Origin: Sarcophilus harrisii
Taxonomy: Eukaryota
Length of the DNA stretch: 64,000 nucleotides
NCBI GenBank assembly: GCA_048593225.1
Contig: CM109176.1
Coordinates: 477,435,429 to 477,499,428, forward strand
Direction of reading: 5' to 3'
Shown: positions 9,876-63,463 of the stretch, piece after piece
How positions within the stretch are numbered: position 1 is the stretch's first letter
Layout of the letters: each line of letters begins with the position of its first letter
Notes under the pieces: model-generated
Told to the model about the DNA's origin: nothing
What the model saw: the letters and a program-made list of their open reading frames with translations, nothing else
The model's database searches: none
Translations under genes and position numbers: made by a program

Positions 9876-10008
9876 CTGTAATCAGCTGAGTCATCTAGTT
9901 TCAACAGTGACTTGACTGTGATCCCTTCTAGCTCCAACTTGATTCGAATGAGCTGTAGCACTAAAAATGTGGCAATCAGCTGTAATACATCTTCTTTTCC
10001 TTTGGAAC
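9876..10008 (-). CDS. Candidate downstream coding exon translating (G)SKGKEDVLQLIATFLVLQLIRIKLELEGITVKSLLKLDDSADY, phase 1 to 2.
   Basis: The acceptor is 'gaatacttttag|GT' and the donor is 'GATTACAG|gtatgc'. It is open only in the frame required by the phase-1 end of the previous exon. It resembles VWA5A 'WATILAVIWL...EWELLERKAVAWM'. Confidence 0.4.
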
Positions 10009-10649
10009 CTAAAAGTATTCACAGTTATTACCAATTGAGAACATTAATGCCACTAAAAATGTGAAGACATAACAGTGGATCATGAGACAATATGCAGAAC
10101 AATACTCTGAAGAAACAATTTTCTGCAGAATACAGTTAATTTAATGTCTTTAATAACATATGCAAAAGTGATACTATGTTATATTACCACAAAGGCAGCT
10201 AAGCTCGGGTTATTTGGCCACATTTAAACATTGATTATAGACCTGCTGATGGGCTTTTTGTTGGTTGTAGACAATCTAGTTAAGTTCAGAGATTCTCAAT
10301 GTTCAAAAGGTGGCTGCAGTTGATGGTGGGTTTTTTGGCCATAGTAACTCAACAAAACTGAATATTAAGGAGGAATGATTTCAATCTCCTTTTGTATAAG
10401 ACTACCAAAACAATTAAATCATAGATCATTAAAAGTAAGTTCTAGAAATACCTGAGATCATATACATACGTATGGTGGTGAAGGGGCACTGAGTAATCAT
10501 TCTTTCTGCTAATGAAGAAAGTTTTATTCAAACACCTAGGCTTGATCTCAAGATTACATGTTCAAAGGTGCTTTTTAAAAAAATTGTAATGTTTTAATTT
10601 TTCAACTTTTATTTTAAGCAAGAATGTCATGATATGTGTTAATTACTTT

Positions 10650-10850
10650 AGCAGTCTACCCACTCAGTTTTTAAAAATTTTTATTAAAGCTTTTTATTTT
10701 CAAATCATATACATGGATAATTTTTCAACAATGATCCTTGCAAAACCTTGTGTTCTCTTCCCCCTACCCCTTCCCCTAGATGGCAAGTAATCAAATATAT
10801 GTTAAACATGTTAAAAATATGTTAAATCCAATATATATATACATATTTAT
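10650..10850 (-). repeat. L1 3'-end fragment.
   Basis: It is the reverse complement of an L1 3'UTR: 'catggataatttttcaacaatgatccttgcaaaacc...cccctagatggcaagtaatcaaatatatgttaaacatg'. Confidence 0.7.
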
Positions 10851-11219
10851 ACAGTTACCATGCTGCACAAGAAAAGTCAGATCAAAAAGGAAAAAAATAA
10901 GAAAGAAAACAAAATGCATCAAAGTGCTTCTTAAATTTTTTGTAGTTTAAAGTTAAATATTCATTTTATATCAAAACAAGATTTACTTATAGTAGAGACT
11001 TTACTTATAGTAAAATCTTAAAAAATTGTTTTCTAAAATGCCTACTTTGTTAACAGTTTTTTCACTTTATCTTTCTTGCTTTTTTGTAACATGTTTAATC
11101 TAGAAATATGTTACACATGATTTTATTTGTGTAATTAAGATATTGCTTGCCTTTTCAATGGGTGGGGGAGGAGCCAGGAGACAATTCAGAGTTCAAAAAA
11201 AACCAAACATTTTTTTTGA

Positions 11220-11830
11220 GGGAGAACTAGAAATTAAGTGGATGCCCATCAATTGGGGAATGGTTGAATAAGTTATGATATATGAACATAACATTCATAT
11301 TATGGAATATTATTGTTCTATTACAAACTATCAGCAGGATGATTTCAGAGACTTGGAGAGCTTACATGAACTGATGCTACATGATGTGAATAGAACTAAG
11401 AGAATACTGTAGACAGTAACAAGATTATGTGATGATCAACTGTGATGGACATGGCTCTTTTCAACAATGAGGTAATTCAGTCCAATTCCAATAGGCTTGT
11501 GATGGAAAGAGCCATCTGCACCCAGAGAGGATTGTGGGAACTGAAATGTGAATCACACCACAGTAGTTTCACCTTTTTTATTGTTGTTAGCTTGCTTTTT
11601 CTTTCTCATTTTTTTCATTTTTGATCTGATTTTTCTTATACAGCATGATAAATGTAGAATTATGTATAGAAGGATTGCACATGTTTTAATATATATTGGA
11701 TTACTTTTCCAATGGAGGAAGATTGGGAGAAGGGAGGGAGAAAAATTTGGAATAAAATGTTTTGCAAGGGTGAATGTTGAAAACTATTTTTGCATCTATT
11801 TTGAAAATAAAAAGCTATTAAAATAATAAT
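11220..11830 (+). mobile_element. L1 3' end (ORF2 C-terminal fragment plus 3'UTR).
   Basis: It contains 'ggatgcccatcaattggggaatggttgaataagttatgatatatgaaca...ggttttgcaagggtgaatgttgaaaactatttttgcatc...aataaaaagctattaaaa'. Confidence 0.85.
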
Positions 11831-12289
11831 TTTAACAACTGTAATATTAATAATAAAAAAATAAAATACCTACTTCTCCAAAATAGTATTCAAAGTCGTG
11901 ATTAGTATCTTTTATAAAACAAACTACTATTAGAGCTACTTTGATCTGATTATGCAAAAAAATTCTAAAAGCATAAAGGCTCTTTCATTTCTTCCAAACT
12001 CTATACAGCAATCTTGTTATATAGAAATGGACAGAGCTTTTCTAATGATTATGTTTTTTAATTCCCTAACCAGATGCTTCCATAGGATCAATGAAAAGGA
12101 AGAATAAAGAGTTCATAGTTTAAAATGTCAGCTCAGGATGGAAATGATGGAGAGAAGGATTAAGTATTATTTCTCTACTGTTTACTTTAGAGAGAGACTG
12201 ACTAGCTAGGAGAGTCTAAAATTACTGTTCCTTCTACGATGCAGTTAAATGGCCTCCCTGTAGTTCTACAGATACAACATTCTAATCTT

Positions 12290-12730
12290 CTGTCTCTGCC
12301 TCTGCCCAACCTGTCCCTTGTGCCAAAAAAATGCACCACTTAGTAGAATTTGTAATTTTCTTTAAAGCTCAGACCCTTCCTTATTTCTCCCCTGGTCACT
12401 ATTAATTACCTTATTTTTATATACTAATATATGTACATATTGCCTCCTTCAATGAAATATGAATTCCATGAAGACAGAGACCATTTCCCCTTTATATTTT
12501 CAGTGCTTAGTCCAGTGTACTCAAGCGTCCCTCATTCCTCCAACTGCTAGTGCTATTCCTCCCAAGCCATTTTATATTAATTTGTATTCTGCACATGCCT
12601 GCATGTGCATGTTATCTATCCCATTAGAATATGTACTCCTTGAGAGTATGGATTGTTTATTGCCCTTGTACTCTTGGTGCCTAGAACAGAGCCTGCCACA
12701 CAGTAGCTACTTAATAAATGTAAGTTATTG
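12290..12730 (+). mobile_element. Mar1/MIR3-type marsupial SINE.
   Basis: It contains '...gaatatgtactccttgagagtatggattgtttattgcc...cagagcctgccacacagtagctacttaataaatg', characteristic of the MIR/Mar1 core and tail. Confidence 0.75.
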
Positions 12731-25959: not shown

Positions 25960-28560
25960 GGAAGGTAGTAGAATTAAGAAGTATTGGGAAATGTTTTCCT
26001 CAGAGGATGGGATTTTAATTAGGTCTTGAAGAAAGCCAGGAAAGTCAAAAAGATTCCCAAAGATGAAGAGAAAGAACATTCCAGACATGGGGGACAGATA
26101 GAGAAAATACCTGGAGCCAAGAGATGGAATATTTTCACTGGGCTGAAGAGCTTGTGGTATAAAATAATCTGTAAAAAGACTGGAAAAGTAATGGGATAGG
26201 ATAAGGAGTTAGGATATGAAAGGCTTTGAATGATAAACAGAAGATTTTGTGTTTAATTCTGAAGGTGATAAGGATCCTTTGGAGTTTAGTGAATGGAGGG
26301 GTATGTATGACATGGTTGGATCTATACTTTAAGGATATCACTTTGGCAGCTGAAGGGAGGATATTTTGAAATGGGGAGAGGCTTGAGACAGGCAGAGCCA
26401 CCAGAAAAACAGGAATCAAGATGGTAAGATCTGGACTAGAGTAGTGGCAGTGTCAGAGAATAGATGGAGGCATATTTGAGCGATGTTGCAAAAGTGACAC
26501 CAACAGGCCTTGGCAACAGCCTGGATCCAGGGGTGAGAGACCGTGATGGGGCCAGGATAACTCCTAGGTGGTGAGCCTTAGGCACTGAGATGATAATGTT
26601 GTTCTCTACAGTAACAGCCAAGTAAGAGATAGAGAGGATTTAGGGGGAAAGACAATAAGCTCTGTTTCATGCATTTAAAATATCCTCTGAATGTTCATTT
26701 CAAGATGTCTGAAAGATAGTTAGAAATATGAAACTGTAGGTCAGTAGAGAAGTTAGCCAAGAAAAGGTAAATTTGAGAATCACCAACATAGAAATGCTCC
26801 ATGGCAACTGATGATATCACTGAGTGAAGTGCTACAGAGAAGAGAAGAAGGCTCACTCTGAGTGACACCTACAATTAGAGGGTATAAGAGAGTATATAGG
26901 GAGGGATAGTGATCCATAGTGTCAAAGGCTGCAGAGAAGTCACGGAGAATGAGGACTAAGAAAAGGCCATTACATTTGGTAACTAAGAGATTCTTAGTAA
27001 CTTTGGAGAGAGCAGTTTGAGTGGGATGATAAAGTCAGAAGTTCAGTTGTAAAATGTTAAGAAGTAAGCAAGAGGAGAGAAAATAGAAGCACTAGTGTAG
27101 ATGGTCTGGCCATAAAGCTAGAAGAGATATTATAGAATGATAGTGGGGATGGAAGGATCAAGTGAGGGTATTTTGGCGATGAGAGATACATAGATGTGTT
27201 TCCATGGAAGAGGGGAAAGAGCCAATAGTCAGAGAGATATTAAAGATAAATGAGAGAGTAAGGATGACAGAGGCCCAGTCTACTGAAGGGTGTGGGACAG
27301 AATGAGATCCCTTATGGAAAAGTGGGCTTTGATAAGGAACAAGGCTGACTTATCATGTGAAAGATGGGTGAAAGAGGAAACAGTAGTAGAAGGCATCTGA
27401 ATGAGATGAAATAAAGATGGGACAAAGGAACTCACAGCAAATAGCTTCAATTTTTTGGTAAAATATGAGGCAAGGTTCCCAGATAAGTGGGTGGGGGAAA
27501 AGGAGATCCCTGAGAAGTTTGAGAAGGGATGCAAAGATTTGGAAGAGCTGCTATGGGGAATGAGACAGTGAGTTGATTAAGAAGGTGCAGAAGGACAGCC
27601 TAGTAACAATGAGAGTCAAGTTGAGATTCTCTCCATTATCATTCAGCTGCAAGAGTGGGTGTCATCCAAGGCTGAGGCTTGTATGGTAGGGTACAATTGT
27701 TCGTAGGAAAAGGAAGCCAGGGACTAAAGAGAAAAAAACAGTGCAGAGCTGAACTGAGTTACCAAGGGATCAAAAATGTGGAAGAAAGGAGAGAGTGCCT
27801 AGTGTGTGGGGATGGCCTGGGAGAGAATCAAAGGATTGAAGGATTGGAGGTCATGATGTGAAAAGGAAATAAGGTTTGGTAAAGGAAGGCAGATGAAGAG
27901 GCAGGTGGTCAGAGAAGGATATTTCAGAATTCTTGAATATGAAGGTGGTGTATTTGTGGGTGATGGCAAGATCCAGAGTAAGCTCATCTAACAGAAGTGA
28001 GATTAAGAAGTAGGTCATGGGAAGTGAGTTGACTGAAGAACTGAGTGGTGAAGGTGTTTGATGGAGAATCAATATATGTGTTGAAGTCTCTTAGTAGGAG
28101 ACAAGAGTTTAAAGAGGAGAGAAAAATTGTGAGCCGGGTACCAAATTCTTTTAGGGAGGAAGGAGGGTGACTTGGATATCTGGACAAAGTCTACCTGGAT
28201 TTTGATAAGAGTGGGAGAGATAAATAACATGACCTTAGGGAGAGAACTTGAGAGTGGCAACAGGGAGCAAGGAACAGTCCAACTCCCCTGCCTTACCCAG
28301 TGAACTGAGAAGAATAAATAGAGGTGCAGCCTGTACTGGGTGGCCAGAGAGACAATCCAGAGGGCACAATGTAAGGGCTAAGTGGTGTTTGACTGGGATT
28401 TTGGGGTAGTAGGATTCAAGATGATCAGGAAAATGGGGTTCTGAATCATTGGTATGTGTAGGTCTAACCAGATGAAAAAATGTCCATCACTGAAGGCAGC
28501 ATTCTTCTTTTTATAAAAGAGGTTGTCTCCTGCCCAGGCAAGAGACAAGTACAATATGAA
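25960..28560. repeat. Unclassified interspersed repeat of about 2.6 kb, purine-rich on the plus strand. Related fragments lie at 9130–9300, 31200–31560 and 48280–48960.
   Basis: The copies share sequence with one another, e.g. 'gaggagtgaaggttgactcccaggttgtgaggatggtcat' versus 'gaggagtaaagggtgacttccaggttgcaaacctggatagc'. There is no intact ORF. The repeat family cannot be assigned from sequence alone. Confidence 0.5.
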
Positions 28561-29563: not shown

Positions 29564-29686
29564 CTTCATCATTATATTCTCTAGCTGCTCCACCTCCCAA
29601 TCCATGTATGGTAGAAAATCTATGTCTTCTGTGGTGATAAGTTCCAAAATATTTGGATTATTAGAATCCGATGATATATTGCTATC
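29564..29686 (-). CDS. Coding exon translating DSNISSDSNNPNILELITTEDIDFLPYMDWEVEQLENIMMK, phase 0 to 0.
   Basis: The acceptor is 'ttgtttttattcag|GAT' and the donor is 'GATGAAG|gtaagc'. It is the only open frame and is phase-compatible with the large exon downstream. There is no clear homology. Confidence 0.45.
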
Positions 29687-32120: not shown

Positions 32121-32156
<36 letters not shown>

Positions 32157-32159
32157 GTT

Positions 32160-32285
32160 GCTGAGGCAATTGGGATTAAGTGACTTGCCCAGAGTCACAC
32201 AGCTAGGAAGTCTTAAGTGTCTAAGACCAGATTTGAACTCAGGTTGGTGCTCTATCCACTGCCCCACCTACCTGCCCCAAGGCTC
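32160..32285 (-). mobile_element. tRNA-derived SINE flanked by long poly-T tracts, nested in the ERV.
   Basis: It contains 'gctgaggcaattgggattaagtgacttgcccagagtcacacagctaggaagtcttaagtgtctaagaccagatttgaactcaggttggtgctctatccactgccccacctacctgcccc'. Confidence 0.9.
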
Positions 32286-32319
<34 letters not shown>

Positions 32320-33689: not shown

Positions 33690-34335
33690 AAGAAAAACAT
33701 TTCCTTGAAGGGATGCCCACCAATTGGAGAACGGCTGAATAAATTGTGGTATATGAATGCTATGGAATACTATTGTTCTGTAAGAAATGACCAGCAGGAT
33801 GAATACAGAGAGGCTTGGAGAGACATACATGAACTGATGCTGAGTGAAATGAGCAGAACCAGGAGATCATTATATACTTCAACAACAGTACTACATGATG
33901 ATCAATTCTGATGGTCATGGCTATATTCAACAATGAGAGGATCCAAAATAGTTCCAACTGATCTGTAATGAACAGAACCAGCTACATCCAGAGAAAGAAC
34001 ACTGGGAAATGAGTATGGACCACAACATAACATTTCCACTCTTTCTGTTAATGTTTGCTTGCATTTTTTTTCTTCTCAAGTTATTTTTACCTTCTTTCTA
34101 AATCTGATTGTTCCTGTGCAACAAGACAACTGTATAAATATGTATACATATATTGTATTTAACATATATTTTAACATATTTAACATGTATGGGACTACCT
34201 GCCATCTAGGGGAGGAGGTGGGAGGAAGGAGGGGAAAAGTTGGAACAGGAGGTTTTGCAAGGGTCAATATTGAAAAATTACCCATGCATATGTTTTATAT
34301 ATAAAAAGCTATAATAAAAAAAATTAAAAAAAAGC
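33690..34335 (+). mobile_element. L1 3' end nested inside the ERV.
   Basis: It contains '...GERLNKLWYMNAMEYYCSVRNDQQDEYREAWRDIHELMLSEMSRTRRSLYTSTTVLHDDQF' plus the typical L1 3'UTR ending 'ataaaaagctataataaaaaaaattaaaaaaaag'. Confidence 0.9.
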
Positions 34336-34339
34336 ATTT

Positions 34340-34560
34340 CCAAAAGTTATGTTATTACATTACATGGATGATATACTGGGGTGTGCACCTGAGGAGCAAA
34401 TATTAGAAGCATGTTTACATAAGACCATAGGAACACTAAGGAATTACAAATTGCATATAGCTCCAGAAAAAATTCAAAGGCACACTCCTTTTCAATATTT
34501 AGGATATGAAGTATATCCTAAGGTATTGGAACACATGGGAGCCACCTGATAGTGGCTGCT
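34340..34560 (+). pseudogene. ERV pol reverse-transcriptase fragment carrying the YMDD active-site motif.
   Basis: The ORF 34349..34549 reads 'MLLHYMDDILGCAPEEQILEACLHKTIGTLRNYKLHIAPEKIQRHTPFQYLGYEV', the retroviral RT 'YMDD ... QYLGY' signature. Confidence 0.8.
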
Positions 34561-35189
34561 GGAGATCCAACCCAGAATGGATCTTATCTTGTAAGAGGAT
34601 GACACAAGGAGATTAAGAGGCAATTGCTATTCTCTGATGTCTCTGACTGAGAGGCCGCTGCATTGTCTGACCTCTCTCCTCCTTCCTCTGCCTCCAATTT
34701 ATCTCATTCCCAGTCCACAACACCGTGTCAGCAAAGACTGCCCTGCAACTCCTTTAGATGTTATGATCCACAGCTGTGGAGGCTCTTGGAGAATTGACCT
34801 GTCCTGTAACACTAAGGTGCTTATAGTACAAAAACTTTCTTTAAGAACAGAAAAGATGGCCTTCTAACCATGTTAACCATAATTCTTTATTTCAAGAAGC
34901 CCAAGAATCTTGTTCTAAATAACATCAGGCTCCTCAAGCTTTATGTTTGCGATTTGGGATAACAAAAGAGGAAGCTAGGAGCATAGTAAAAGCCTCTACA
35001 GCTTGCTTTCCTTTCCACGTTCCTATGCTCCCTCCAGGAAAGAATGCTTGTGGTTTGAGACCCAGTGAAATTTAGCAAATAGATGTGACTCGTTATAAAT
35101 CTTTTGGCTGTCTGTCTTTTATCCATGTTGTAGTAGACACCTTTTTTCAGGATTCACTTTTGCAATACTAGCAGCAAAAGAAATGACCT

Positions 35190-35445
35190 GAGTGGTCACT
35201 AAGTTCCTTAGACAAGCTTTTGCAATTATGGGTGTGCCACAAGAAATAAGAACAGATAATGGACCTGCATATACTTTTAAACATTTTGTACACTTTTGTG
35301 CACCGTATAAGATTTTACATACCACTGACATACCTTTTAATCCTCAAGGACAGACAATAGTAGAGAGGAAAAACAGAAACATTAAGACCCTCCTCCAAAA
35401 ACACAAGAAAGGGGGAGCCACAGGTAACCTAGAGAACTTCTAAAT
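35190..35445 (+). pseudogene. ERV pol integrase catalytic-core fragment.
   Basis: The ORF 35192..35443 reads '...GVPQEIRTDNGPAYTFKHFVHFCAPYKILHTTDIPFNPQGQTIVERKNRNIKTLL', the DDE integrase core ('TDNGP...NPQ.QG.VER.N'). Confidence 0.85.
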
Positions 35446-35769
35446 CTAGCTCTTTATACTATTACCTTCTTGATTTTTGACAAAGATGCACTGGCTCCAG
35501 TAGACAGGTTTTATAACCCACCAGAAAGTCAGTGTCCAGTGCGAGCAGCTCCACTTTCTGTAGATAATCACCAGGTGATGTAAAGAGACCCAGAAAGTGG
35601 TGAATGGAAGGGACCAGATAGGTTAACTGTTTGGGGGAGAGGGTTTGCTTGTATCTCTATAGATGGAGAAGGAATAAGATGGGTGCCATCCTTGTCCATC
35701 AGAGAGAGACAGAGTAGACCCTTGAAACGAAGGAGAAGACCCAAGAAACATCAGGTTCCATCTCTGATA

Positions 35770-37475: not shown

Positions 37476-37571
37476 CCTTTTCTCAACTGCCACAAAACTT
37501 GTAAATTGTGTTATAATAGAGTTCTCCTTACTGAGTTTAATAATCAGAGACTTCAAAATTTGCTTCTTCAT
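37476..37571 (-). CDS. Coding exon translating MKKQILKSLIIKLSKENSIITQFTSFVAVEKR, phase 0 to 0.
   Basis: The acceptor is 'ccaacctag|ATG' and the donor is 'AAAAGG|gtaagt'. 'KQILKSLIIKLSKE' aligns to VWA5A 'SKALRTLKRSLQP' immediately after the previous exon's homology. Confidence 0.5.
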
Positions 37572-38407: not shown

Positions 38408-38488
38408 CTCATGTTTTGTTTCATCCTCATGAAGTATTCCATCTTCATAATCTCTGATGATAGCTCTAGCTGTTAGCTTGTGAAGCAT
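38408..38488 (-). CDS. Coding exon translating MLHKLTARAIIRDYEDGILHEDETKHE, phase 0 to 0.
   Basis: The acceptor is 'tttgctcctaaaatgtag|ATG' and the donor is 'CATGAG|gtttgt'. Together with the previous exon, 'YGFIPHCTQ|MLHKLTARAI' aligns to VWA5A 'FGIGEGTSTSLIKGIARASGG' and to ITIH 'LARRIHEDSDS'. Confidence 0.55.
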
Positions 38489-38559
38489 CTACATTTTAGG
38501 AGCAAAAGAAAACACATAATTTCTTTGATTACTATTTTACCTTCTAGACTTTTTATATA

Positions 38560-38712
38560 TTTATTTTTTTGCTGAAGCAATTGGAGTTAAGTGACTTGCC
38601 CAGGGTTACACAACTAGGAAATGTTAAGTGTCTGAAACTAAATTTGAAGTCAGGTCCTCCTGACGTCAGAGCTGGTGGGTCTATCCATTGTGCCACCTAG
38701 CTGCCCCAACCT
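38560..38712 (-). mobile_element. tRNA-derived SINE.
   Basis: It contains 'gctgaagcaattggagttaagtgacttgcccagggttacacaactaggaaatgttaagtgtctgaaactaaatttgaagtcaggtcctcctgacgtcagagctggtgggtctatccattgtgccacctagctgcccc'. Confidence 0.9.
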
Positions 38713-39179
38713 TCTTGACTTTTTAAAAGTCATTAATTAATTTCCTTAGTTCCTTAATTTGATTATTCTTTATTATAAGCAAGTAGCAGATTTGTCTCTA
38801 ACATATCCAAAGGTAGGAGGATATCTGCCCAAATGTTCTCTGAGGAAAGAGAAAACAGTGTAACCTAAAGATTCTTTTCCCTCTCTTTAAAAGTTATTCA
38901 TAAAAAGAATTGACTTTAAGAAATTACTTAGATGGCCCTTAGTATGCTTTTTGTTTTGTTTTGTTTTCAAAGTAATACTATACTTTTATTTATTTATTTA
39001 AAATTTTTAAATTAAAATTTATTTTTAATCATCAATAAATCTGCTTTGTCTCCTTTCACCTTCATCCCTCCAAAGTGAGAAAGAAAGAAAAACAAATTCC
39101 CTATTATAAACATGTTAAGCAAAACAAATTCCTATATTGGTCAAGTAAAAAAAATATTTACACTCTGAATACATCATCT

Positions 39180-42385: not shown

Positions 42386-42773
42386 GAAAATTGATTACTA
42401 TCACAAGCATATATATGAAATGATGAATCTTACAGTTCCAGTTGTTTTCTGTAGTTCAGTAGTTGATACCATTGTCTGAAATTCCCTCTCTTGAATTAAA
42501 GCATTTAGGATAGCCTGAAGGACATTAAAATAAAAGAGAAAGCTAATTACTTTTTAGAACTCCACATTCCCAACCCCTTAGTTACTGATACCTTTAGCAG
42601 TGATAATACTAACGATTAACAATTAACCATCTGCCAAGTGAAGAAAGAAGCAAAAATCACTTTTCCTTAGTTGTAAAACATATTCATCAAAGGGGAGAGT
42701 TTTAAAACAAGCCATGTATTAGTTGGTTAAATATTCAAACATACAACCTGTGCTTCTTTGGACCACTCCATAC

Positions 42774-42910
42774 CTGTGTACAATGAGGAATGAATCCATA
42801 CACAAGCAGCCTATCATTATTGAATAAGGCCTGGATTTGTGTGGGAGCCTGCATGGGCTCTGGTGAATTTAAATTCAATTGTTGCCATTTAACAGACACA
42901 GAGCTGCATC
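42774..42910 (-). CDS. Coding exon continuing the VWA domain. It translates (R)CSSVSVKWQQLNLNSPEPMQAPTQIQALFNNDRLLVYGFIPHCTQ, phase 1 to 0.
   Basis: The acceptor is 'tattttctccag|GA' and the donor is 'ACACAG|gtatgg'. Its phase-1 start fits the phase-1 end of the 54.6-kb exon. Across the junction, 'FGTRCSSVSVKWQQ' matches VWA5A 'FGSSYEACFPESVKYTQQ'. Confidence 0.65.
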
Positions 42911-44879
42911 CTGGAGAAAATATTCTTGTCATCTGGTCTTCAATCTATTTAAAAAGGAAAAAAATACATTAGATCTTGATTTTACTTCACAAAAAAGAAC
43001 TTTCATGCTAAATTTAACATTTATAGTTTTTCCTTCTTGTTCTATACAGAATGAAAACTTTGGGGTAAATTTGACAAATGCCCCCTTAAAATGAGTCCAT
43101 TATCAGTGTTACCCACTTTACATATGCAAAGGTAACTTCAATGCCTCTAGTGGGCATTAATTTCTCTAGTGGGCCTTTAGTAGGCAATCTTCACATCATC
43201 TTTTAATTACAATATTCATTCTAATAATACAAGTATTATACAACTTCATATTGTTTGTATATTGAACATTATGAACCAGCAGTTTTCAGCTGTTTTTATG
43301 GTAAAATTAATCGATTTTTATGGTGGGCTTTTTTTTTATTTGCTTAATTTTTCCATCCTTTTTCCTGACTGTAATTTTTATGTTAGGTGAGGCTATGTGC
43401 TCTTACAGAGAGAATGTCTGTAAGGTTACTTAGTATTTCTGTACATATATAAGATTTAGGGGTAGAAAGGATGTGAGAGATCATTTCTAGATCAACCCCT
43501 TCATTCTACTGAGTGGGAAATTGAGGTTCAAAAAGTGACATGCCCAAGGTCATATAAGCAAAAGGAGTAAGATTTGGACCCAGGTCTTATGACACCCAAA
43601 CAGGTTATCTTTTCATGGTATCACCATTTAGGCCAAATGATTACTAAGGTTCTTTCTAGACCTAAACTTCTGTGATACTGAAGCAGATGATTCAGGGCAT
43701 TCACCTAAAGACTATTCTTCCCCCTATCAGATTTCCATTTCATTCTTTCTCCTACAGAGAAGAAAAGAAAATTTGGTTAACCTTTATTTTTCTGGATAAT
43801 AATAGTCTAGTCTCTATTTTATTTAATTTTTCTCTTAGGACTATCCTGTTCTAAACACAAAAAAAAGAACATCTCATTTTTTCAAAACATAAAAAAATTT
43901 AAATTGAATTTTATTTTTATACTTGACTAAAAGAGCCCAAACTTCCAAAATTAGAAAAGTGATCCTAATCATAGTCATAAGTTACATTTACATAGGGCTT
44001 TGAAAACTGATAAAGTGCTATTCTAACAAGATCCTTTAAATATGATGATTCCCATTTTATAGATGAGGAAACAGCAGTTCAATGAGTTTACAAAGTTGTC
44101 AGATCTGGAATTTAGTCCCAGGATTTCTGATCACAGGATCATAGATATAGTAAGAAGGCCTTGAGAAGCTATCTAATTCTTTTTCCTTCATGTGGAAATT
44201 AAAAGTGATAGATATAAAGGTGAAAGGGACCTTTAGCTCCTTTTAGTTGAATCCCTTCAATTTTTAGCTGAGGAAATTGAGGTTCAGGGAAGTTTAATTA
44301 ACTTGTTCACCCTGCCAGTCTCAGAAGCAGAAGCCCCCAATCAGGGCTCTTTCCATTATATTACCATGCTTCCTTCCTTATTCCTAGGCAAGACCTCTTG
44401 CCCTTTTACTAGAGTGTGGAATGTCCACCCACAGGATAAGGCCCTGGAAATCATTTACTGAGGCAACTACAGGCAATGATGAGCTGAAAAGCTAGGTACA
44501 ACAACCTCCCACTGCTTGAGTTCTCTAAAGATGATAATTTTGTAGGGCCTGTAAATTATGTTATAAATATCCAAACAGCCCTTGGCAGAAAAAAAAGTTC
44601 CCCAGTCCTGCCTTATATGAATCATAATGGACTCCACAATCCTTTTTTATGGTTATAAGTATAATTACTGAGTAATAAAAATTGATTTTTGGTTTTTTTT
44701 TCAAGGAACTCTAGTATATATTTTATTATAAACTTATTGTTTGCTAGGTATCAAACCAGAAAATTGAGGTGTGAAGAGAAAAACAAATACAAAACAAGAA
44801 CAAGAATGTTAAGAAAAATAAGAACCTTGCTTTCAAAGAATATACATTCTTGAATAAATGAAATGCGTCTCTTGTCTGA

Positions 44880-47900: not shown

Positions 47901-50900
47901 AACACTTTGTTCCCTCATTGACTTAAGAGATTCTTCTGTCTTGTTACTTTTTTACATGGTATAGACTCCTCTTCCACTAAAATTCTCTTCTGATGATCAG
48001 CCATGATGTAGAGATAACTCTGGACTCTTGAAAATTGTGCGTGCTAAACTATACTAACCTTCCTCTTGAGCTGGAAATGCTTAAAATATGAGCCTAATGC
48101 TGGACTCAATAACACCAAGCATTAAGCCCTTCCAAATATGCTAGGATCTCTGCTGGATACTAGTGATACAAAAAATAAAATTGAGATAATCCCTGCCCTC
48201 AAGGAGTTTATATTTTACCAACGGATATAAGTAAAGACAAAATTAAAACAAAATAAATACAAAATAATTAGAAGAGTATTAACCACTTGGGGAATCAGGA
48301 AAAACCTGCTGAAGAATGTGGAACTTGAACTGAGCACTGAAGGGAGCTAGTGGCTCAAAGAGGTGACAGTAAAGAGGGAGAATATTCCAGACATTTGCTG
48401 GAGCAGCAAGGATAACAGAATGTTGTGAAAGAGGTATAGTAAGTGCATCAATGGAGCTTGAGTGTGTAGGGCAAGGAAGGGAATGATGGGGCACCAATCT
48501 ACCTATGTGTGCCAGTGCGAGAGAAAAAAGCCAGATTGTGGAATGGGGGTTTATATTAGTTCTGGTGGTAGTGGTAGAGAGCCACTGAAGATTCTTAAAC
48601 AGAAGAGTGATAGTTAGGATCTGTGCTTTAGAAATATTAATTTGATGGCTTTATGGAAGATGAATTAGAAAAGGAAGAGACTAGAGGAAGGGAGAAAAAT
48701 TAGAAAGCTCTTGAAATGGTCCCTGAGTAATGAGGCCCTGAATGAGAGGAACTCTGAAATGAACACAGAGAAAGGAACAGATGTGAGAGATACTGAGAAG
48801 GCAAATAAAAATGAGGAGTAAAGGGTGACTTCCAGGTTGCAAACCTGGATAGCTACAAGAATTCTGGTGTATTTGACAAAGGCAGGGAAATTAGAAGGAA
48901 GGGTAGGTTTAGAGAATGTAATGAAATTTGAGAAGTCCAGTCAGTGTTGGATATTTATTTAATAAGGATCAACACAGTTAAATGTAAAGATGTTCATCAG
49001 TGGAAGGTGAGCAAACAACTGATTTTTTGGCCATTTTTTTTTGACAACTCAGGATGACTATCTACCAAACAGATGAGGGGATGTGATCAGTGTCAGTGGA
49101 AAGAATTCTTACACCAAAGAAGTTAAGGATCTATAAAGGACTGAAGTTATAACTCCTTTCTCTCTATTAGACTACAAGACCTATGAGGCTAAGAACCACA
49201 GTTTATCTAAACTTTATTATCTTCTCCAGGTCTTAGCACAGTATAGAAAATTTAATAAATAAACATATATAGAATAGTTCGTTAATACATATTTGTGGAA
49301 CTAAATGGAATCTTTAGAAAAATGTCAGAAAACAAAGTTAAAAGTGACAGACTACATGAATGACATTTGTGAACATTTTGTAAGCATTTGTGGAATAAAA
49401 TTATTAAAGGACTAAAATTCTATTATTACTTAGATATTAGAACCCAGAGATCCATTTCACTGACTATTGTACAAGATTTCAAAACATATGTAATTATAAT
49501 ATTTCATATTCCCATAAGCATACTTGAAAAAAAGAATGAAAAGGCGAAGAAACTTGCCTGTTTTTTCCAACTATATTTAGATTTTGTGTTAAAGTATTCA
49601 AATGCTCCAGCACCGTACTGGGACAAAGTCCTTAGGATATGACGATTTGCTGTGGACCTGGTCAAATTTTAAAGATTTGTTTCAAAGATTTATGAAAATA
49701 ATTTCAAAAGTCTTTACAAATTAAAATGTCAACAAAAAAGTATGTGGTACTAACAGATAGTGCCATGCCCCCTGAATGGTTTTGGGATTTATAATTCAAA
49801 AGAAATAAAATAAAATATTAGAGAGAACATATGTAATTCAAATTCCTCAGACTAATGGATGGGCTGATCTTTTTCAACAAAGGAATTGAAAAGTAGTGAT
49901 AACAGATGGTCTTTTAGATCATATTTCTCTCTAAATAAGGACTAGTTTCTTTTCAACCAGAAGTAGAGGTGCAAATGAAATGATAATTGCCACTTACACC
50001 TACTCCCAAATAAGGCCTATGCTGAACCCAAATACCAAGGAAAAACAAACACCTTTTCCATCCCTCAATTTCTACAACCCTACTCATTCCTAATCTTCTC
50101 TAACCTATCTGACTTTTTAGTCTCCTTTGCTGATCTGCCATCTATTCTATGCTTTCTACTTAAAGAACTATCTCTGAGGCTCTTCTTTCTATAGTCTTTC
50201 CCCGGGGTATTTCCTCAGCTCTTACCGGTTCTTTTATGTTTTGGAAGTTACCTGTATAATCCATCTATTCTGTCCTAATTCCCTAATTTCCCTCCTACAT
50301 CACCTGTTGGCCTGTTGGCCACACTTCCTCCCCCTCCATTTTCCATTTACATAATGATTTTTCTAACACTTACCCAATGCCACATGTAAATAAGCGGGTG
50401 TGTCTAACATTTCTTTTTACAATCTGCAATGTCAGGCTCTTGTTCTGAATATGCCCATCAGACAGAAGAAGTATGCTGCGCATCCCTTGAGAAGGGTAGA
50501 GTAAGTTTAAAAAACGAAGGGTTTTCCAGAAGTCAGTATTTCCCATGGTAGGTGTAGCAGACTAGAAAAAAATTAAAAGAAAGTAGATTTTATAAACACT
50601 GTAAATTTGCTACTCAATATTTCTTTTTTGGAGCATGTTTCCTTTTTTAGAGAAGGGATCCCTAATTTTTTCATGAAAGATTTTTTAAAAAATGACATAT
50701 TTGCTACTTTGCCTGGGAATAAGAGGTAAACTAATATCATTCCATTTCTGCATTATGAACTTACAAAAAGTAGATTCTCACATTTCCTTTTAGACAACTA
50801 GAATATACAAGTATTTTCTTTGTGCCTAAATTAAATGAAAATGTTGTTTTGTTGTTTGTTTTTAATAGTTCATCATACACTTAACTTTAAATCTCCACAA

Positions 50901-53389
50901 AACCAATCAAACTTAGATTTGCCACTAATTAAACTTTTAAAATAAAGCATACCAATGTAAATTTACCTTTTCCCCAACTTATAAATTATCCAATTAATAG
51001 CCTCTCCAGCTAGTACTATTTTAAATATAAAATGAAAGAGCTGGTATCACATGCTATTTTTAATGGCATTGTGTTTACTCTTAATTAGTGGCTGTAATCT
51101 TATTTTAGAGAAAATAGGAAAAAGATATTTCCCTTGAATAAAAATCACAGTACTCTTTGTGTCTGATAGTCTCAAATTGCATATAATACTTCAGACTCTT
51201 TACAGACCAATTGTTCAGGCCCCTTGTTCAAGTGGTTTACCTCGCCATCTGTAATTGATCTCTCGCCTTAAGTTGCCTCTCAACCAAAAATTACTAAAGT
51301 CTGCCTTCCTGCTTACCTATGTGTGACTATAACATTTTTTTCTCCTTCCTGTGTCTTTATATAATGGTTACTGTCACATACTGGTTGCACTACATTTTTC
51401 CAGAGAGGAAAAAGTATAAAAGCTACATAAGTAAATGGAATAGTAGCAGGCAATTTAGCAAAAACAGGGATGTATGCCCAGGGCCTTAGGGGCAGAAATC
51501 CTGGGAATGCCATTAAAATTTCATATGCAAAGATTCAGGATATTTAAGAAAGAGTGTTTTACTCACCATAATGAACTCTGTTAGGTCAGGATTGCTTGTG
51601 GAGTACTTAGGATATGAAAATAATTCTGTGTAACCTGTATAATGAAATTTGTTTGAAACTTCTGTCAAATATTTATTCTAGTAACTTCTAGTTGCATTAC
51701 CATTATGTGGTTCTTTCTGTCATTTAAAAATACTTCACATATTTGTTTATGTATATTTATTGAGTTGGGCCTCACTTTTAGGAAGCTGTATATATAAAAA
51801 TCTTAGTTTGTAATTGTAACAGGAGACTGACCTATAAGGGCCAATCCTGCACATATGTGCAGGGGACTTATAGATATTTGGTGAATACATCTCTAGAAGT
51901 TTATGATAATGTGGAACAAAGGTGTATAACTCTTCACCAAGCATTGGCAAACGTTTAGTTTGTGATTGTTTCCTGTCCACATGGTGGACAGGTGAAGAAG
52001 GATCTTTTGATTAGGGATTGAACAGGAACTGAGCTCATACAAAAGGCCCTAACACAAAAATTCATTTTTTCCTTCCCATCGGTCTTGAGATACAAAGATG
52101 TCTCTGATCTCTGGAGAGCCAGTGGTAAGCCAGGGTAACAGCATATGGCTGTTAAAGCAAGTCTATATCTGACATGGGGCTACCTCCCATTTATATTTTC
52201 TAAACATTGATAAAGGATTTTTGAGACTTTGAAGAACAAAGAACAAAGGTCTAGTGACAGGATACCATATCAAAATTTGCTGGTACTGAGATGAGAGCAT
52301 CAACCATCCCTGAGGAATAATCTGCTCGATTCAGCTCAGTGGCAAAGGGATGATGGATCTTAAGTAGCTTGAAGTCTAATCTTGAAGTAGCCCCCTCATT
52401 CTGTCTATATGTCTAGACTCAGTAGCCACTACTGAGTCTGGTGGGGATGCCTGCATAGCCACCAAGGGGTTTCACAATTCATCCCAGCAGAAGACTGGGC
52501 CCTCCAGTGAAGAAAGATATTACAGTTCAGCATGAGCAAACACAAGTGAGCTGCTCATATCATGGAGATTTCCAGCCTTGTGAGGAGCTAGCCTGGCTGA
52601 GCAGCAGAGTGCCTCATCCACCATCAGTATTGTGCCTGCCCCACCACAATGCAGAGAGCACCCTTCAGAAAAAAAAGGATCTAGAAGCTCTGTAGCTTCA
52701 TCTTTGTGAGGTTTCTTAGCCACATATGTTCCCTACACATGTCTCATTGTGATTGTGTTTTAAATTCATGTCTACTCTTCTCCCCTTTTGCTTGGATGTA
52801 TTTGTGGGAGAATGTGCCCCAGAGGTTGGGTTGACTTATTGAGTCAAGTAATTACAGACTAAATTATTAAAGAACAGAATTTTCTGGCTGCTTGTTAAGC
52901 AAGAGTCCACTAGCAGAGGCACATGAGGCAATATTAGGAGGCTATCTGTCCACAGTGTTCCTCCTACTCTAAAGTACTAACAGCTAATCCTGTGGAATTC
53001 CAACCTGCCAGTACCTATGAGTTAAACAAGTGAGACTTGAGAGGCATTAAAAAAAAAGATAAATTAGAGAGTGATAAAAAATTGGCTTCCTTTCAATATA
53101 TAATTTTGTCAACATATTTATACTACAAAATCACTCATTTAGAACTCAATCATTATATAAAACAAGGTTTGTCTTTAATCTCAAATAGCCCTTTATGTTT
53201 CTACAAAAAGTAAGAGCTCCATACTTTCCCCTGTGGACTTCCCTAGTATTGATATTACTTGGCCAATGGTGAGGTTCAGGAGAAACTTTAACAACAGGGC
53301 CTTTTTTAGAATGGGATGGGCATGAATAGAGAGAACACTGAGCTCCATTCTTTCCTGTGTCATGTGTCTTGACTCTTCTTTACAATCAG

Positions 53390-54504: not shown

Positions 54505-54700
54505 TTGTGCCAAACTTGATAATATTTACTTTTTGCTTCTCTTGGACAAGAGACAGAGCATGTAAGGCAATTTGCTTTGCTTGCAGTAATATTGAACCCT
54601 CCATAGAATTGGAACAATCCAGACAAATAATAACTTCATTAGTATAGGCCTTTTCAGGAAGTGCAGTGCTAAAATCTGGATGGAACACCAGCATGCAGGC
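54505..54700 (-). CDS. Coding exon for the N-terminal half of a VWA domain with a MIDAS DxSxS motif. It translates ACMLVFHPDFSTALPEKAYTNEVIICLDCSNSMEGSILLQAKQIALHALSLVQEKQKVNIIKFGT, phase 0 to 1.
   Basis: The acceptor is 'tccttcttccttctag|GCC' and the donor is 'ACAA|gtaagt' (consensus). The translation aligns to VWA5A 'GEFIFLMDRSGSM...AKETLILLLKSL...YFNIYGFGS'. Confidence 0.8.
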
Positions 54701-56329: not shown

Positions 56330-56530
56330 ATATAATATTATATATATATATTATATATTAATATATAATATAATATATATATAGAGAATAATAACTGAGA
56401 ATAATTGAGAATAACACTGAGAATAATATAATATAACATATAATAATAATATAATATATATAATATATAATAATATAATAAATAATAAATAAATTAAATT
56501 TAAATTTAATTTAAATAAATTTAAAATAAG
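56330..56530. repeat. AT-rich compound microsatellite of (ATATA/TAATA/AAT)n, about 200 bp.
   Basis: Directly visible: 'tataatattatatatatatattatatattaatatataatataatatatatata...aataataaataaattaaatttaaatttaatttaaataaa'. Confidence 0.95.
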
Positions 56531-56544
56531 AGGCATTTCAAGGG

Positions 56545-58490
56545 AAAATCAGAAACTTTATGAGCAAAACTACAAAACACTTTCCACACAAATTAAGCCT
56601 GATCTAACCAAGTGGAAAAATATTAAATGCTCTTGGATTGGACGAGCAAATATAATAAAGATGACAATACTACCTAAACCAATCTATTTATTTAGCGCTA
56701 TACCAATCAGACTCCCCAAAAACTATTTTAATGACCTAGAAAAAATAACAACAAAGTTCATATGGAAAAACAAAAGGTCAAGAATTTCAAGGGAATTAAT
56801 GAAAAAAAAATCAAATGAAGGTGGCCTAGCTGTACCAGATCTAAAATTATATCATAAAGCAGCAGTTACCAAAACCATCTGGTATTGGCTAAGAAATAGA
56901 CTAGTTGATCAATGGAATAGGTTAGGTTCAAAGGATAAAACAGCCAATAACTTTAACAATCTAGTGTCTGACAAACCCAAAGACCCCAGTTTTTGGGATA
57001 AGAACGCATTATTTGACAAAAATTGCTGGGGAAATTGGAAATTAGTATGGCAGAAACTAGGCATTGATCCACACTTAACACCGTACACCAAGATAAGGTC
57101 AAAATGGGTTCATGACCTAGACATAAAGAATGAGATTATAAATGAATTAGAAGAGCATAGGATAGTTTACCTCTCAGACCTGTGGAAGAGAAAGGAAATT
57201 ATGACCAAAGAAAAACTAGAGATCACTATTGACTACAAAATAGAAAATTTTGATTATATCAAATTGAAAAGTTTTTGTACAAACAAAACTAATGCAGACA
57301 AGATTAGAATGGAAACAATAAACTGGGAAAACATTTTTATAGTCAAAGGTTCTGATAAAGGCCTCATTTCCAAAATATATAGAGAATTGACTCTAATTTA
57401 TAAGAAATCAAGCCATTCTCCTACTGATAAATGGTCAAAGGATATGAATAGACAATTCTCAGGCGAAGAAATTGAAACTATTTCTAGCCATATGAAAATA
57501 TGCTCCAAATCATTATTAATCAGAGAAATGCAAATTAAGACAACTCTGAGATACCACTACACACCTGTCAGATTGGCTAAGATGACAGGAAAAGATAATG
57601 ATGATTGTTGGAGGGGATGTGGGAAAACTGGGACACTGATACATTGTTGGTGGAATTGTGAATACATCCAACCATTTTGGAGAGTAGTTCGGAACTATGC
57701 TCAAAAAGTTATCAAACTGTGCATACTCTTTGATCCAGCAGTGTTTCTACTGGGCTTATACCCCAAGGAGATACTAAAGAAGGGAAAGGGACCTGTGTGT
57801 GCCAAAATGTTTGTGGCAGCCCTTTTTGTAGTAGCTAGAAACTGGAAAATGAATGGATGCCCATCAATTGGAGAATGGTTGAGTAAACTGTGGTATATGA
57901 ATATTATGGAATATTATTGTTCCATAAGAAATGACCAGCAGGATGAATACAGAGAGGCTTGGAGAGACTTACATGAACTGATGCTGAATGAAATGAGCTT
58001 TATATACCTTTATATACCAGGAGATCATTATATACCTCAACAACGACACTGTATGAGGATATATTCTGATGGAAGTGGATTTCTTCAACAAAGAGATCTA
58101 ACTCAATTTCAATTGATTAAGAATGGACAGAAGCAGCTACACCCAAAGAAAGAATACTGGGAAATGAATGTAAACTGCTTGCATTTTTGTTTTTCTTCCC
58201 GAGTTATTTTTACCTTCTGAATCCAATTCTTCCTGTGCAACAAGAGAACTGTTCGATTCTGCACACATATATTGTATGTAGGATACACTGTGACATATTT
58301 AACTTGTATAGGACTGCTTGCCATCTGGGTGGGTGGGGGGGTGAAAGGAGGGAGGGGAAAAGTCGGAACAGAAGTGAGTGCAAGGGATAATGTTGTAAAA
58401 AAATTACCCTGGCATGGGTTCTGTCAATAAAAAGTTATAATAAAAAATAAATTAATTAATTTTTTTAAAAAAGGGGAAAAAAAAAGAAAA
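56545..58490 (+). mobile_element. 5'-truncated L1 with a long intact stretch of ORF2 (519-aa ORF covering the RT C-terminus and Cys-rich domain) and a 3'UTR. It is relatively young.
   Basis: The ORF 56661..58220 reads '...[89 protein letters not shown]...EWLSKLWYMNIMEYYCSIRNDQQDEYREAWRDLHELML'. A 3'UTR with an A-rich end runs 58220–58490. Confidence 0.9.
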
Positions 58491-60599: not shown

Positions 60600-60715
60600 G
60601 CCATGGCAGGTGTGTGTATGTGTATGTGTGTGTGTATGTGCATAGTATGTGTATATACAGAAAGAGAGAGAAACAGAGGCAGAGAGAGAAATGAGACACA
60701 CAGAGAGAACCAAAC
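60600..60715. repeat. (GT)n followed by (GA)n compound microsatellite.
   Basis: Directly visible: 'gtgtgtgtatgtgtatgtgtgtgtgtatgtgc...cagaaagagagagaaacagaggcagagagagaaatgagacacacagagagaacc'. Confidence 0.9.
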
Positions 60716-61312: not shown

Positions 61313-61378
61313 CTCACTTTCCTTGTTTGGGTGCTTTTCAACCCACATTCTTGGGAGGTAAACCTCTCCTATGTGGAT
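61313..61378 (-). CDS. Candidate small internal exon translating IHIGEVYLPRMWVEKHPNKESE, phase 0 to 0.
   Basis: A strong acceptor 'cttctctctccag|AT' and donor 'GAG|gtaaat'. The frame is open and its phase is compatible with the upstream VIT exon. There is only weak resemblance to VWA5A 'EDLPYTLSMV'. Confidence 0.28.
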
Positions 61379-61989
61379 CTGGAGAGAGAAGCCTTTGCTG
61401 TCTAAGGTACTGTTATCCAAAGTACTGATTACAGCTTTGCAGTCTGTTTTCTATACACAAAAGAAAAATATAATAACATTTGATTTAATTGAATATGTCC
61501 ATTTTGTCACTCACTGTAGTATAAAATCATTTTCAAAGGATAGTTTAAAGGAGAGCAAAAAAATTAATCCTAAAGTTATGTGTTTCTGATCACTTGAAAA
61601 CTCTGAATTCTTAGGGTAAAACTTTCATTTCAGTCATTTTCAGGTATTTCACAAAATTCTAAATTTGTATCTCTCTACAAAGCCAAACCAAAGTAAAAGA
61701 ATAACACTTCTACTTAAGTCATTAGTTATATAGATTAATCTGGTTCAGAATATAACTGATAGTCACACTTTAAAGATCTTATAAATTTTACAATTTAAAA
61801 AATCTTACAAATGAGCCTCACTGATGACAGCATTGATAAGATATTTTTACAAGTATGAAATTAATTTAAATATAGATAATAAAGTTTTTTAAAGACTTAC
61901 ATACCTTTATTTTGAGCTGGTGTGTGTCACTGCTAATTAGCTCAATTAAATGTGGCATCTCAATTGATATATTTAAGGAGAATCTATTA

Positions 61990-62265
61990 AATATAAAGAA
62001 AAAAGGATTTCAATTTAATAGACAGAGATACATTGCTTTCCTTCACATATGCTATATTTCAAATACAAGTTGCTATATGCTAGCTACTTGTGCTCCTCAA
62101 ATTACCTTGTATTTATTCTGAATATATTGATATGTGCAGTTGTCTCCTCTATTGACTGTAAGTTTCTTAAGGAAGGGATTATTTCATTTTTGTTTTTGTA
62201 TCACTAAAGACACAGTACTTAGCACCTAATAAGTGTTTAATAAATGTTTCTAGATTGATCACACC
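61990..62265 (+). mobile_element. MIR-type SINE.
   Basis: It contains '...ctctattgactgtaagtttcttaaggaagggattatttcatttttgtttttgtatcactaaagacacagtacttagcacctaataagtgtttaataaatgtttctagattgatc', the MIR/Mar1 3' region. Confidence 0.8.
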
Positions 62266-62879
62266 CTCTATAAATTTGTGTAAGCTCTCTCCCAAGTTCA
62301 GATTGTATACTCTTTTCATTACTCTGTCAGAAGCCTAATCAGCTAAACTGTATCTCCTTTACAGAAAATTATGATTCCCTCCATCTGAAAATATTTTCTC
62401 TCCCTTAAAATTTTGCCAGAACATTTTGAAGCTCTTTGTTTCTATGACATTCTTCCTTCTATTAAATACAGTATATTTCAAAAGGAACTTTAAAATATGA
62501 AATTAATGTCCACTAAATTCAGTCACTGAAAAATTAAGACTTTATATTTTAGGTACTTACTGCTGATGCACTCCTACTTCCTTAATATAAACTTTCTCTA
62601 CTGCATCCTGTCAAAAATAAAAATATAATCATATATCCATTTTCAGGGTACGCCGAATACAATGACTAGGATATAAAAAAATGGTAGGTCATTGTCACAT
62701 CAAGTAAACAGCTAGCAACATGAATAATGCTATAAGTTTGCAACTTTGCACATCTGTAAATATCATGCATTTTCCTCTTGTGGAATAAAAGTCACTATAA
62801 AACTAATTTTTGAGTAATAGTACTCAGAAAGGTTAATGAAATAACAACAGTTAACATTTGCATACAGCTTACCAAACAC

Positions 62880-63085
62880 TTTACAATTATTATCTCACTT
62901 GATCTCACCATAACTCTGGGAGGTGGATGCTATTATTCACTCTATTTTACAGATAAAGAAACTGAGGAACACAAGTTAAGTGACTTGCCTAGAGTCACAA
63001 AACTATTAAATAGTTTATATCCCTTAGGCAGGGATTTGAAATCAGGTCCACCTGACTCCAGGCCTGATGTTCTCTCTGCTGTGCC
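62880..63085 (+). mobile_element. MIR-type SINE about 200 bp downstream of the VIT exon (in the gene's direction).
   Basis: It contains '...attttacagataaagaaactgaggaacacaagttaagtgacttgcctagagtcacaaaactattaaatag...ggatttgaaatcaggtccacctgactccaggcctgatgttctctctgctgtgccatcc'. Confidence 0.8.
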
Positions 63086-63298
63086 ATCCTAATTGCCTCT
63101 AATTGCTACTGATATTCAAAAAGGGCAAATGAAAATAATTTTTTCTCATTTTTCTAACTGACATGTATACTAAGTTCTGTTATCTTTAGGAAATATTACC
63201 TATTTATATCAAGGACATTAGATTCCTTTTGATAATTAATTTAAGAACTATAACTTCAAAGAAAATATCACTTAAAATGTAATGTTAAATATACAAAC

Positions 63299-63463
63299 CT
63301 GCAAGTTTTCATTTAAAGCTTTGTCCTGTTGCCACGGTGCTACAGTAGCAGGCATGAAGAAGTTGGCACATCCATGATGAAAACTGAGCTCAGTAATATA
63401 GGTAATTTTGATAAGAACTTTGGCCTGTGGTGGTAAGTTTCCAATACTCACAGTAAAGACACC
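63299..63463 (-). CDS. Internal coding exon, VIT-domain portion of a VIT+VWA protein. It translates GVFTVSIGNLPPQAKVLIKITYITELSFHHGCANFFMPATVAPWQQDKALNENLQ, phase 0 to 0.
   Basis: A minus-strand ORF with acceptor 'tttccatttcag|GG' and donor 'CAG|gtttgt'. The translation aligns to the VWA5A/ITIH VIT core ('VGNLQPGSKAAVTLKYVQELPLE...VLPAVLNPRYQ'). Confidence 0.72.

Follow-up and report, generated by a model that had tools for sequence, protein, structure and literature searches.

The stretch of DNA described here (hereafter 'the window') comprises 64,000 nucleotides (nt) from the genome of the marsupial Sarcophilus harrisii, corresponding to positions 477,435,429 to 477,499,428 of the forward strand of contig CM109176.1 in assembly GCA_048593225.1. 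An earlier interpretation, made from the letters and without the aid of database searches (termed here the sequence-only reading), had described within it a multi-exon gene on the minus strand, encoding a protein with VIT and VWA domains, and had assigned that protein to the VWA5 family. Subsequent computational analysis indicated that the window almost certainly contains the 3' 58 kb of the PARP4 gene of this species (the Tasmanian devil, hereafter the devil), which lies on the minus strand and encodes residues 710-1735 of the protein. That locus is already annotated, its 1735-residue product being designated 'protein mono-ADP-ribosyltransferase PARP4' by NCBI (hereafter P0020), and the window does not hold a new VWA5-family gene.

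The complete gene model consists of 18 minus-strand coding exons that together span 3084 nt and correspond to 1027 codons followed by a TAA stop codon, with no internal stops. The 17 acceptor sites are all AG, and the corresponding donors comprise 16 GT dinucleotides and a single GC; reading phases are consistent throughout. The exons, and a candidate signal for polyadenylation that lies beyond them, are as follows, with the domains and homologous residues to which they correspond (MIDAS, metal ion-dependent adhesion site; HSP, high-scoring segment pair; MVP, major vault protein; MVPID, MVP-interacting domain; E, expect value).

63299..63463, minus strand: exon 1 in the window, 165 nt, phase 0 to 0, PARP4 residues 710-764, end of the VIT domain (GNLPPQAKVLIKITYITEL); acceptor TTTCAG, donor GTTTGT; 100% identical to P0020 residues 710-764 by tblastn; Pfam VIT profile positions 91-111.
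62561..62607, minus strand: exon 2, 47 nt, phase 0 to 2, DAVEKVYIKEVGVHQ; acceptor TTTTTGACAG, donor GTAAGT; matches P0020.
61905..61983, minus strand: exon 3, 79 nt, phase 2 to 0, FSLNISIEMPHLIELISSDTHQLKIK; from tblastn HSPs, with splice sites read from the sequence.
61313..61450, minus strand: exon 4, 138 nt, phase 0 to 0, KTDCKAVIST...VEKHPNKESE, aligned to human residues 811-856; acceptor TGTGTATAG at 61451, donor GTAAAT.
54505..54700, minus strand: exon 5, 196 nt, phase 0 to 1, start of the VWA domain (Pfam VWA) with the MIDAS motif DCSNS; 100% identical to P0020 residues 853-918 by tblastn.
51567..51634, minus strand: exon 6, 68 nt, phase 1 to 0, (G)YTELFSYPKYSTSNPDLTEFIM; from tblastn, with splice sites read.
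50374..50561, minus strand: exon 7, 188 nt, phase 0 to 2, VWA core, in which the Thr (GNT) and Asp (SDG) of the MIDAS lie; tblastn E 4.5e-28 with protein P0006.
49558..49657, minus strand: exon 8, 100 nt, phase 2 to 0, STANRHILRTLSQYGAGAFEYFNTKSKYSWKKQ; the intron after it is of the GC-AG type.
42774..42944, minus strand: exon 9, 171 nt, phase 0 to 0, IEDQMTRIFSPGCSSVSVKWQQ...PHCTQ; acceptor TTTAAATAG at 42945; from tblastn.
42434..42514, minus strand: exon 10, 81 nt, phase 0 to 0, AILNALIQEREFQTMVSTTELQKTTGT; from tblastn, with splice sites read.
38408..38488, minus strand: exon 11, 81 nt, MLHKLTARAIIRDYEDGILHEDETKHE; from tblastn.
37476..37571, minus strand: exon 12, 96 nt, MKKQILKSLIIKLSKENSIITQFTSFVAVEKR; from tblastn.
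29564..29686, minus strand: exon 13, 123 nt, where the ITIH-like region ends (EDIDFLPYMDW); the alignment to human residues 713-1219, which is gapless, has its final block here.
17063..18076, minus strand: exon 14, 1014 nt, phase 0 to 0, Pro/Ser-rich linker with poly-Pro tracts; equal to P0020 residues 1221-1557 except for one added Pro.
16861..16962, minus strand: exon 15, 102 nt, phase 0 to 0, IQKHQTDVIPRENWLRSIKENLVFWTQVFNLQNE, start of the MINT domain (MVPID); acceptor CCTTTCAG, donor GTATTT.
15847..15946, minus strand: exon 16, 100 nt, phase 0 to 1, EGFWKLNHELGLILKLNVNDLNTFLVQKGIQSL; includes the Ser that corresponds to human S1614.
9876..10008, minus strand: exon 17, 133 nt, phase 1 to 2, GSKGKEDVLQLIATFLVLQLIRIKLELEGITVKSLLKLDDSADY; includes the Lys that corresponds to human K1618.
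5443..5644, minus strand: coding part of exon 18, 202 nt including TAA at 5443-5445, last part of the MINT domain, where the counterparts of Q1682 and R1689 lie; acceptor TTTTCTTAG at 5645; tblastn E 1e-19 with P0002; 100% identical to P0020 residues 1669-1735.
5266..5271, minus strand: candidate polyadenylation signal, the first AATAAA/ATTAAA hexamer past the stop codon in a pattern listing, 172 nt after TAA.

The exon chain was repaired by searching the window by tblastn with camel and sturgeon fragments named 'Poly [ADP-ribose] polymerase 4', together with other homologues, and by reading the exon boundaries from the sequence. The searches with the camel and sturgeon fragments, of the kind that the sequence-only reading had itself proposed as a check, did place homologous matches on the exon intervals that it had listed, but also returned six further places (at approximately 61.9, 51.6, 50.4-50.6, 49.6, 42.4-42.5 and 5.5-5.6 kb) and extended two of the listed exons upstream. 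Because the phases of exons 63299-63463 and 61905-61983 do not join, a small intervening exon was predicted, and exon 2, which has a strong acceptor, was then found by a scan for AG and GT bounds, compatible phase and similarity. The acceptor of exon 1 is preceded by a reading (FPFQ) that differs from the corresponding residues of P0020 (...DSP). The only donor in the model that departs from GT is GCAAGT, found after exon 8 at 49552-49557 on the minus strand; no nearby GT donor that keeps the frame was found when the sequence at that site was read, and the GC-AG intron is needed because the resulting exon 8/9 junction (KKQ|IEDQ) is shared by P0020 and human PARP4.

When compared with this structure, the sequence-only reading proved correct in describing a minus-strand, multi-exon, intron-rich vertebrate gene, and all of the peptide landmarks that it quoted (GNLPPQAKVLIKITYITEL, DCSNSM, NIIKFGT, SVKWQQ, LHKLTARA, KQILKSLIIKL and EGFWKLNHELGLILK) are present in the translation. 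Its ten exon intervals, all of them open in frame and bounded by AG and GT, have the right donor in every case and are exact in eight (exons 1, 5, 11, 12, 13, 14, 16 and 17), but in the remaining two the acceptor is false: in 61313-61378 the claimed AG belongs to the Gln CAG codon in SLQ|IHIG, such that the interval represents the 3' half of exon 4, and in 42774-42910 the claimed AG lies inside FSPG|CSS of exon 9. The chain thereby touched 10 of the 18 exons and missed the other eight (exons 2, 3, 6, 7, 8, 10, 15 and 18). The last of these falls below the lower bound of the gene range that had been given (9876-63463). The phases of the earlier chain are arithmetically sound, but misleading, with the join 54505|42910 leaping over three real exons and 34 nt of a fourth; the requirement for consistent phase passed both of the false acceptors and all of the omissions. 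Reading exons from raw sequence by eye thus recovered eight of them exactly and arrived at the right protein superfamily, but at the wrong paralog.

When the 288-aa translation of the earlier chain was used as a query, only fragmentary PARP4-like proteins from camel and sturgeon and unnamed genomic gene calls were returned, and Pfam matches to VWA and VIT remained below threshold because the missing exons truncated the VWA domain. The repaired model, in comparison, scores 52-53 bits for VWA and matches hundreds of vertebrate PARP4 proteins, of which the best is Sarcophilus harrisii PARP4 itself (P0020; 97% identity, 100% coverage) and the next is the PARP4 of Sminthopsis crassicaudata (87%). 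A direct BLASTP comparison of the model, at that point comprising 17 exons, with P0020 showed 992 of 993 residues to be identical, the differences consisting of one extra Pro and one gap of 34 residues; that gap led to the location of exon 16861-16962, which completed the set of 18. Full-length P0020, searched against the window by tblastn, matches exactly the 18 intervals, and residues 1-709 have no match in it, in agreement with the earlier proposal that the 5' end of the gene lies past position 64000. The C-terminus and stop codon of P0020 are the same as those of the gene in the window, and residues 710-1735 are equal in the two apart from one additional Pro codon within a poly-Pro tract of the linker. 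A single place encodes P0020; it lies on a contig of 611 Mb in assembly GCA_902635505.1, and the gene range there spans 103 kb.

The domain content of the annotated protein was established by Pfam, which places BRCT at residues 2-79, PARP_reg at 285-350, the PARP catalytic domain at 386-562, VIT at 621-731 and VWA at 875-1027 (the last scoring 53 bits, where the cutoff is 23.8). The portion encoded within the window is therefore the non-catalytic part of the protein, and comprises the last 22 residues of VIT, the whole of VWA, the remaining ITIH-like region, a linker of 338 residues and the MINT/MVPID domain. The motif previously described as the core of the VIT domain corresponds to those last 22 residues, and the C-terminal 21 positions of the VIT profile lie in the window; a VIT and VWA protein had thus been properly recognized by its VIT end, its MIDAS-bearing VWA domain and its C-terminal helical domain, but had been assigned to the wrong paralog. 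The MIDAS motif is complete (DCSNS...GNT...SDG) and its pattern is identical to that of the human protein. Pfam gave no match on the last exon or on the isolated 209-aa C-terminal region; the family PF26156, which is precomputed on PARP4 proteins, was not reproduced by the Pfam scan and was not used.

The architecture of human PARP4 (vault PARP) provides the basis upon which the devil gene can be compared and its function considered. Previous structural studies described an N-terminal half that resembles PARP1 (residues 1-575), an ITIH-like region that includes VIT and vWA domains, an intrinsically disordered linker, and a helical, C-terminal MVP-interacting domain (1570-1724) with a conserved residue at Arg1689 (PMC10450202). 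Additional studies demonstrated that the docking site of the MINT domain (1562-1724) lies between repeat domains of MVP close to the waist of the vault, that the domain's key contacts with MVP are made by S1614, K1618, Q1682 and R1689, and that an S1614A/K1618A double mutation abolishes binding (PMC12280208).

A phmmer search against the sequences of all solved structures returned one strong match, to chain 11jf_P (human PARP4, 1724 aa; see also PDB 9bw6 and 9bw7), with which the devil protein is colinear through the VIT end, VWA, ITIHL region, linker and MINT domain. Residues 2-508 of the model align to human residues 713-1219 without a single gap and with 74.8% identity over 507 residues (E 9e-253), and a second block aligns the C-terminus to human residues 1581-1724 (E 4e-55); both values are far above chance. 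Across the MINT domain, 105 of 169 residues (62%) are identical to human, and the equivalents of S1614, K1618, Q1682 and R1689 are all kept. The two linkers differ, with that of the devil spanning 338 aa (as compared with approximately 361 aa in human), displaying no detectable sequence similarity to its human counterpart, and containing poly-Pro runs of 12-13 and 7 residues.

Judged from its sequence, the devil gene thus has the MINT domain, the VIT and VWA domains and the putatively disordered linker that are expected of a PARP4 orthologue, and the annotated P0020 protein would place the N-terminal BRCT-WGR-HD-ART half on the same polypeptide. Docking to the vault, ADP-ribosyltransferase activity and disorder of the linker are likely by orthology with the proteins described in the literature. 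On the basis of homology to the human protein, the MINT domain would dock the protein onto MVP repeat domains 3-5 inside the vault cage, the linker would tether the VIT-VWA and BRCT-WGR-HD-ART modules and allow them to move within the vault's lumen, and the VWA/ITIHL region would act as a protein-interaction module.

The linker is encoded by a single exon (exon 14), which is one of only three open reading frames (ORFs) of at least 130 aa in the whole window; at 34% G+C, 338 open codons would arise by chance with a probability of about 2e-11 per start. The encoded sequence is Pro/Ser-rich, specific to its lineage and of low complexity, gives no match to Pfam, and displays no significant similarity to the human linker by BLASTP; because similarity to placental sequences is lacking, the exon was confirmed through marsupial proteins only. 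Relative to the devil, Sminthopsis displays identities of 96% in the ITIHL part, 83% in the linker and 91% in the MINT domain; Petaurus displays 85%, 43% and 84%; and placentals display about 75%, 12-15% (noise level) and about 60%, respectively. Divergence of the linker is therefore two to four times that of the flanking domains, even among marsupials, a behavior that fits the rapidly evolving disordered segment that has been described previously, from which disorder of the devil linker is also inferred (PMC10450202). In a wallaby (Notamacropus) PARP4 isoform (P0024) the linker exon is absent, and the camel fragment P0002 is also without a corresponding segment; because exon 14 is 1014 nt in length and begins and ends in phase 0, its skipping would keep the frame, and such in-frame skipping is plausible. 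The poly-Pro tract is encoded by a (GAG/GGA)n repeat (17662-17723, plus strand) with one Pro codon more than P0020, an addition that probably represents microsatellite length variation between assemblies or individuals.

A possible, though doubtful, interpretation of these patterns is that the linker may act as a lineage-specific, fast-evolving interaction surface, either as a poly-Pro ligand for domains of the SH3, WW or profilin type or as a target of host-pathogen conflict. The linker of primate PARP4 has reportedly been proposed to be such a target. Relaxed constraint on a disordered spacer accounts equally well for the linker data.

An assignment of the gene to the VWA5 family, which would imply a VWA5A- or VWA5B-like protein with VIT and VWA domains first and without ADP-ribosyltransferase domains, is vanishingly unlikely. 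The resemblance to VWA5A upon which it draws is real at the level of the superfamily: the ITIH-like VIT and VWA region is common to VWA5A and PARP4, and a BLASTP comparison with a VWA5A sequence is significant (E 8e-23). That same comparison yields only 25% identity with 63 gap positions (a figure that is indicative only, as the VWA5A sequence used is unverified), as opposed to gapless alignment at 74.8% identity with human PARP4, and the identity with devil PARP4 is essentially complete. The annotated protein with this exact sequence (bar the one Pro) furthermore contains BRCT and PARP catalytic domains, which were the features that the sequence-only reading had itself named as expected upstream for a PARP4-like protein, and Pfam sets of the PARP4 type are found in all 120 proteins among the matches listed for the repaired model. 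Structural comparisons have indicated that VWA5A (BCSC-1) has in common with PARP4 the ITIH-like region and, at its C-terminus, a helical domain belonging to one fold class, and that it is without an equivalent of Arg1689 (PMC10450202); that Arg is present in the devil sequence. VWA5A also differs from devil PARP4 in having neither a BRCT/WGR/HD/ART half nor a long linker. Membership of the VWA5 family was rejected on the basis of the BRCT and PARP domains upstream in P0020, the closer relationship to PARP4 than to VWA5A, and the presence of the Arg1689 equivalent. Membership among the ITIH heavy chains was also considered and rejected, in that no ITIH chain was found at E <= 0.001 in the search of solved-structure sequences and the C-terminus is a MINT domain. 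The ITIH proteins are secreted, and are not known to carry a MINT domain. ITIH1-6 do have the VIT and VWA architecture in common with PARP4, and the structure of ITIH1 resembles the ITIHL region of PARP4 (PMC10450202).

It might alternatively be argued that what the window holds is the 3' part of PARP4 as a non-functional duplicate, or as a pseudogene copy undergoing decay, as the 5' part of the gene is absent from the window and the linker exon is strongly diverged from placental sequences. This too is very unlikely: all 18 exons are open, their splice sites are intact and their introns are retained; there are no amino-acid substitutions relative to the annotated devil protein, for which one encoding place is on record; the folded domains are 83-96% identical among marsupials, consistent with purifying selection; and divergence of the linker is a property of every lineage, rather than of the devil alone. 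The assignment of the window to the PARP4 gene must itself be weighed against several considerations, namely that the splice junctions rest on homology, consensus sites and agreement with a computationally annotated protein; that the BRCT and PARP exons lie beyond the window and are known solely through P0020; that, given the extra Pro codon, the window is no exact copy of the sequence in the assembly behind that prediction; and that, within the analysis, the species was identified by protein identity only.

The introns of the PARP4 model range from 100 base pairs (bp) to 11,487 bp in length, with just one exceeding 10 kb, and contain copies of long interspersed nuclear elements (LINEs), short interspersed nuclear elements (SINEs) and endogenous retroviruses (ERVs), as had been proposed from the sequence. 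Intron 4 harbors an uninterrupted ORF of 575 codons (56493-58217, plus strand, antisense to PARP4) that corresponds to residues 767-1259 of human LINE-1 (L1) ORF2p (E 1.6e-159) and covers the C-terminal 40% of that protein; the assignment was made via solved-structure sequences, with Pfam giving no match on it, and the long intact ORF suggests that this L1 copy is fairly young. At least 10 other L1 ORF2 fragments are scattered across the window. Within intron 12, a degraded ERV (34328-35986, plus strand) displays the YMDD motif of reverse transcriptase (RT), the core (Pfam rve, 35.6 bits) and the C-terminal domain (IN_DBD_C, 45.3 bits) of an integrase, and a segment similar to the transmembrane (TM) portion of env, LDYLLAAEGGVC; no pair of long terminal repeats for it was found within the window. 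A family of tRNA-derived SINEs, about 170 bp in length and carrying A and B boxes like those of tRNAs, is represented by at least five copies (6973-7109, 25472-25645, 25776-25939, 32124-32293 and 38550-38724), as well as by weaker ones, and a poly(A) of 33 nt (poly-T on the plus strand, 32123-32155) follows the copy at 32124-32293.

Between 26000 and 28500 the plus strand displays a strong GC skew of 0.37-0.51, together with a string of minus-strand ORF pieces of 75-105 codons, in which an RT-like motif (FSAAFDTMDH) is found at 26783-27034; Pfam gave no match on the RT-like pieces at 26-28 kb, and the candidate element located there is probably an old, non-L1 LINE. A (GAGA)n microsatellite at 22755-22860 (26.5 copies) yields a spurious SLSLSL ORF of 131 aa. 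Rfam (at gathering thresholds) and ARAGORN each returned zero matches on the window, the latter indicating no tRNA genes, and the introns were therefore concluded to contain no RNA gene of a known family.

Outside the window, the next gene on the same strand in the devil assembly is located 8.9 kb beyond the end of PARP4 and encodes an 857-aa protein with Chromo and ankyrin-repeat domains, which we take to be MPHOSPH8-like. A further protein that does not come from the window (P0110) has Pfam matches to PARP and BRCT and is 65% identical to devil PARP4; it illustrates that confusion between VWA5A and PARP4 occurs in public annotation as well.

The scientific weight of these observations is small, in that the window contains a PARP4 orthologue already annotated in a marsupial whose genome has been sequenced, with an architecture that corresponds to that published for human PARP4. 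If the linker were to act as an interaction surface, it might merit attention in a species burdened by transmissible tumours. For the family itself, the comparison indicates that the MVP-docking residues of PARP4 are conserved in marsupials, and that its putatively disordered linker has undergone nearly complete turnover between marsupials and placentals.

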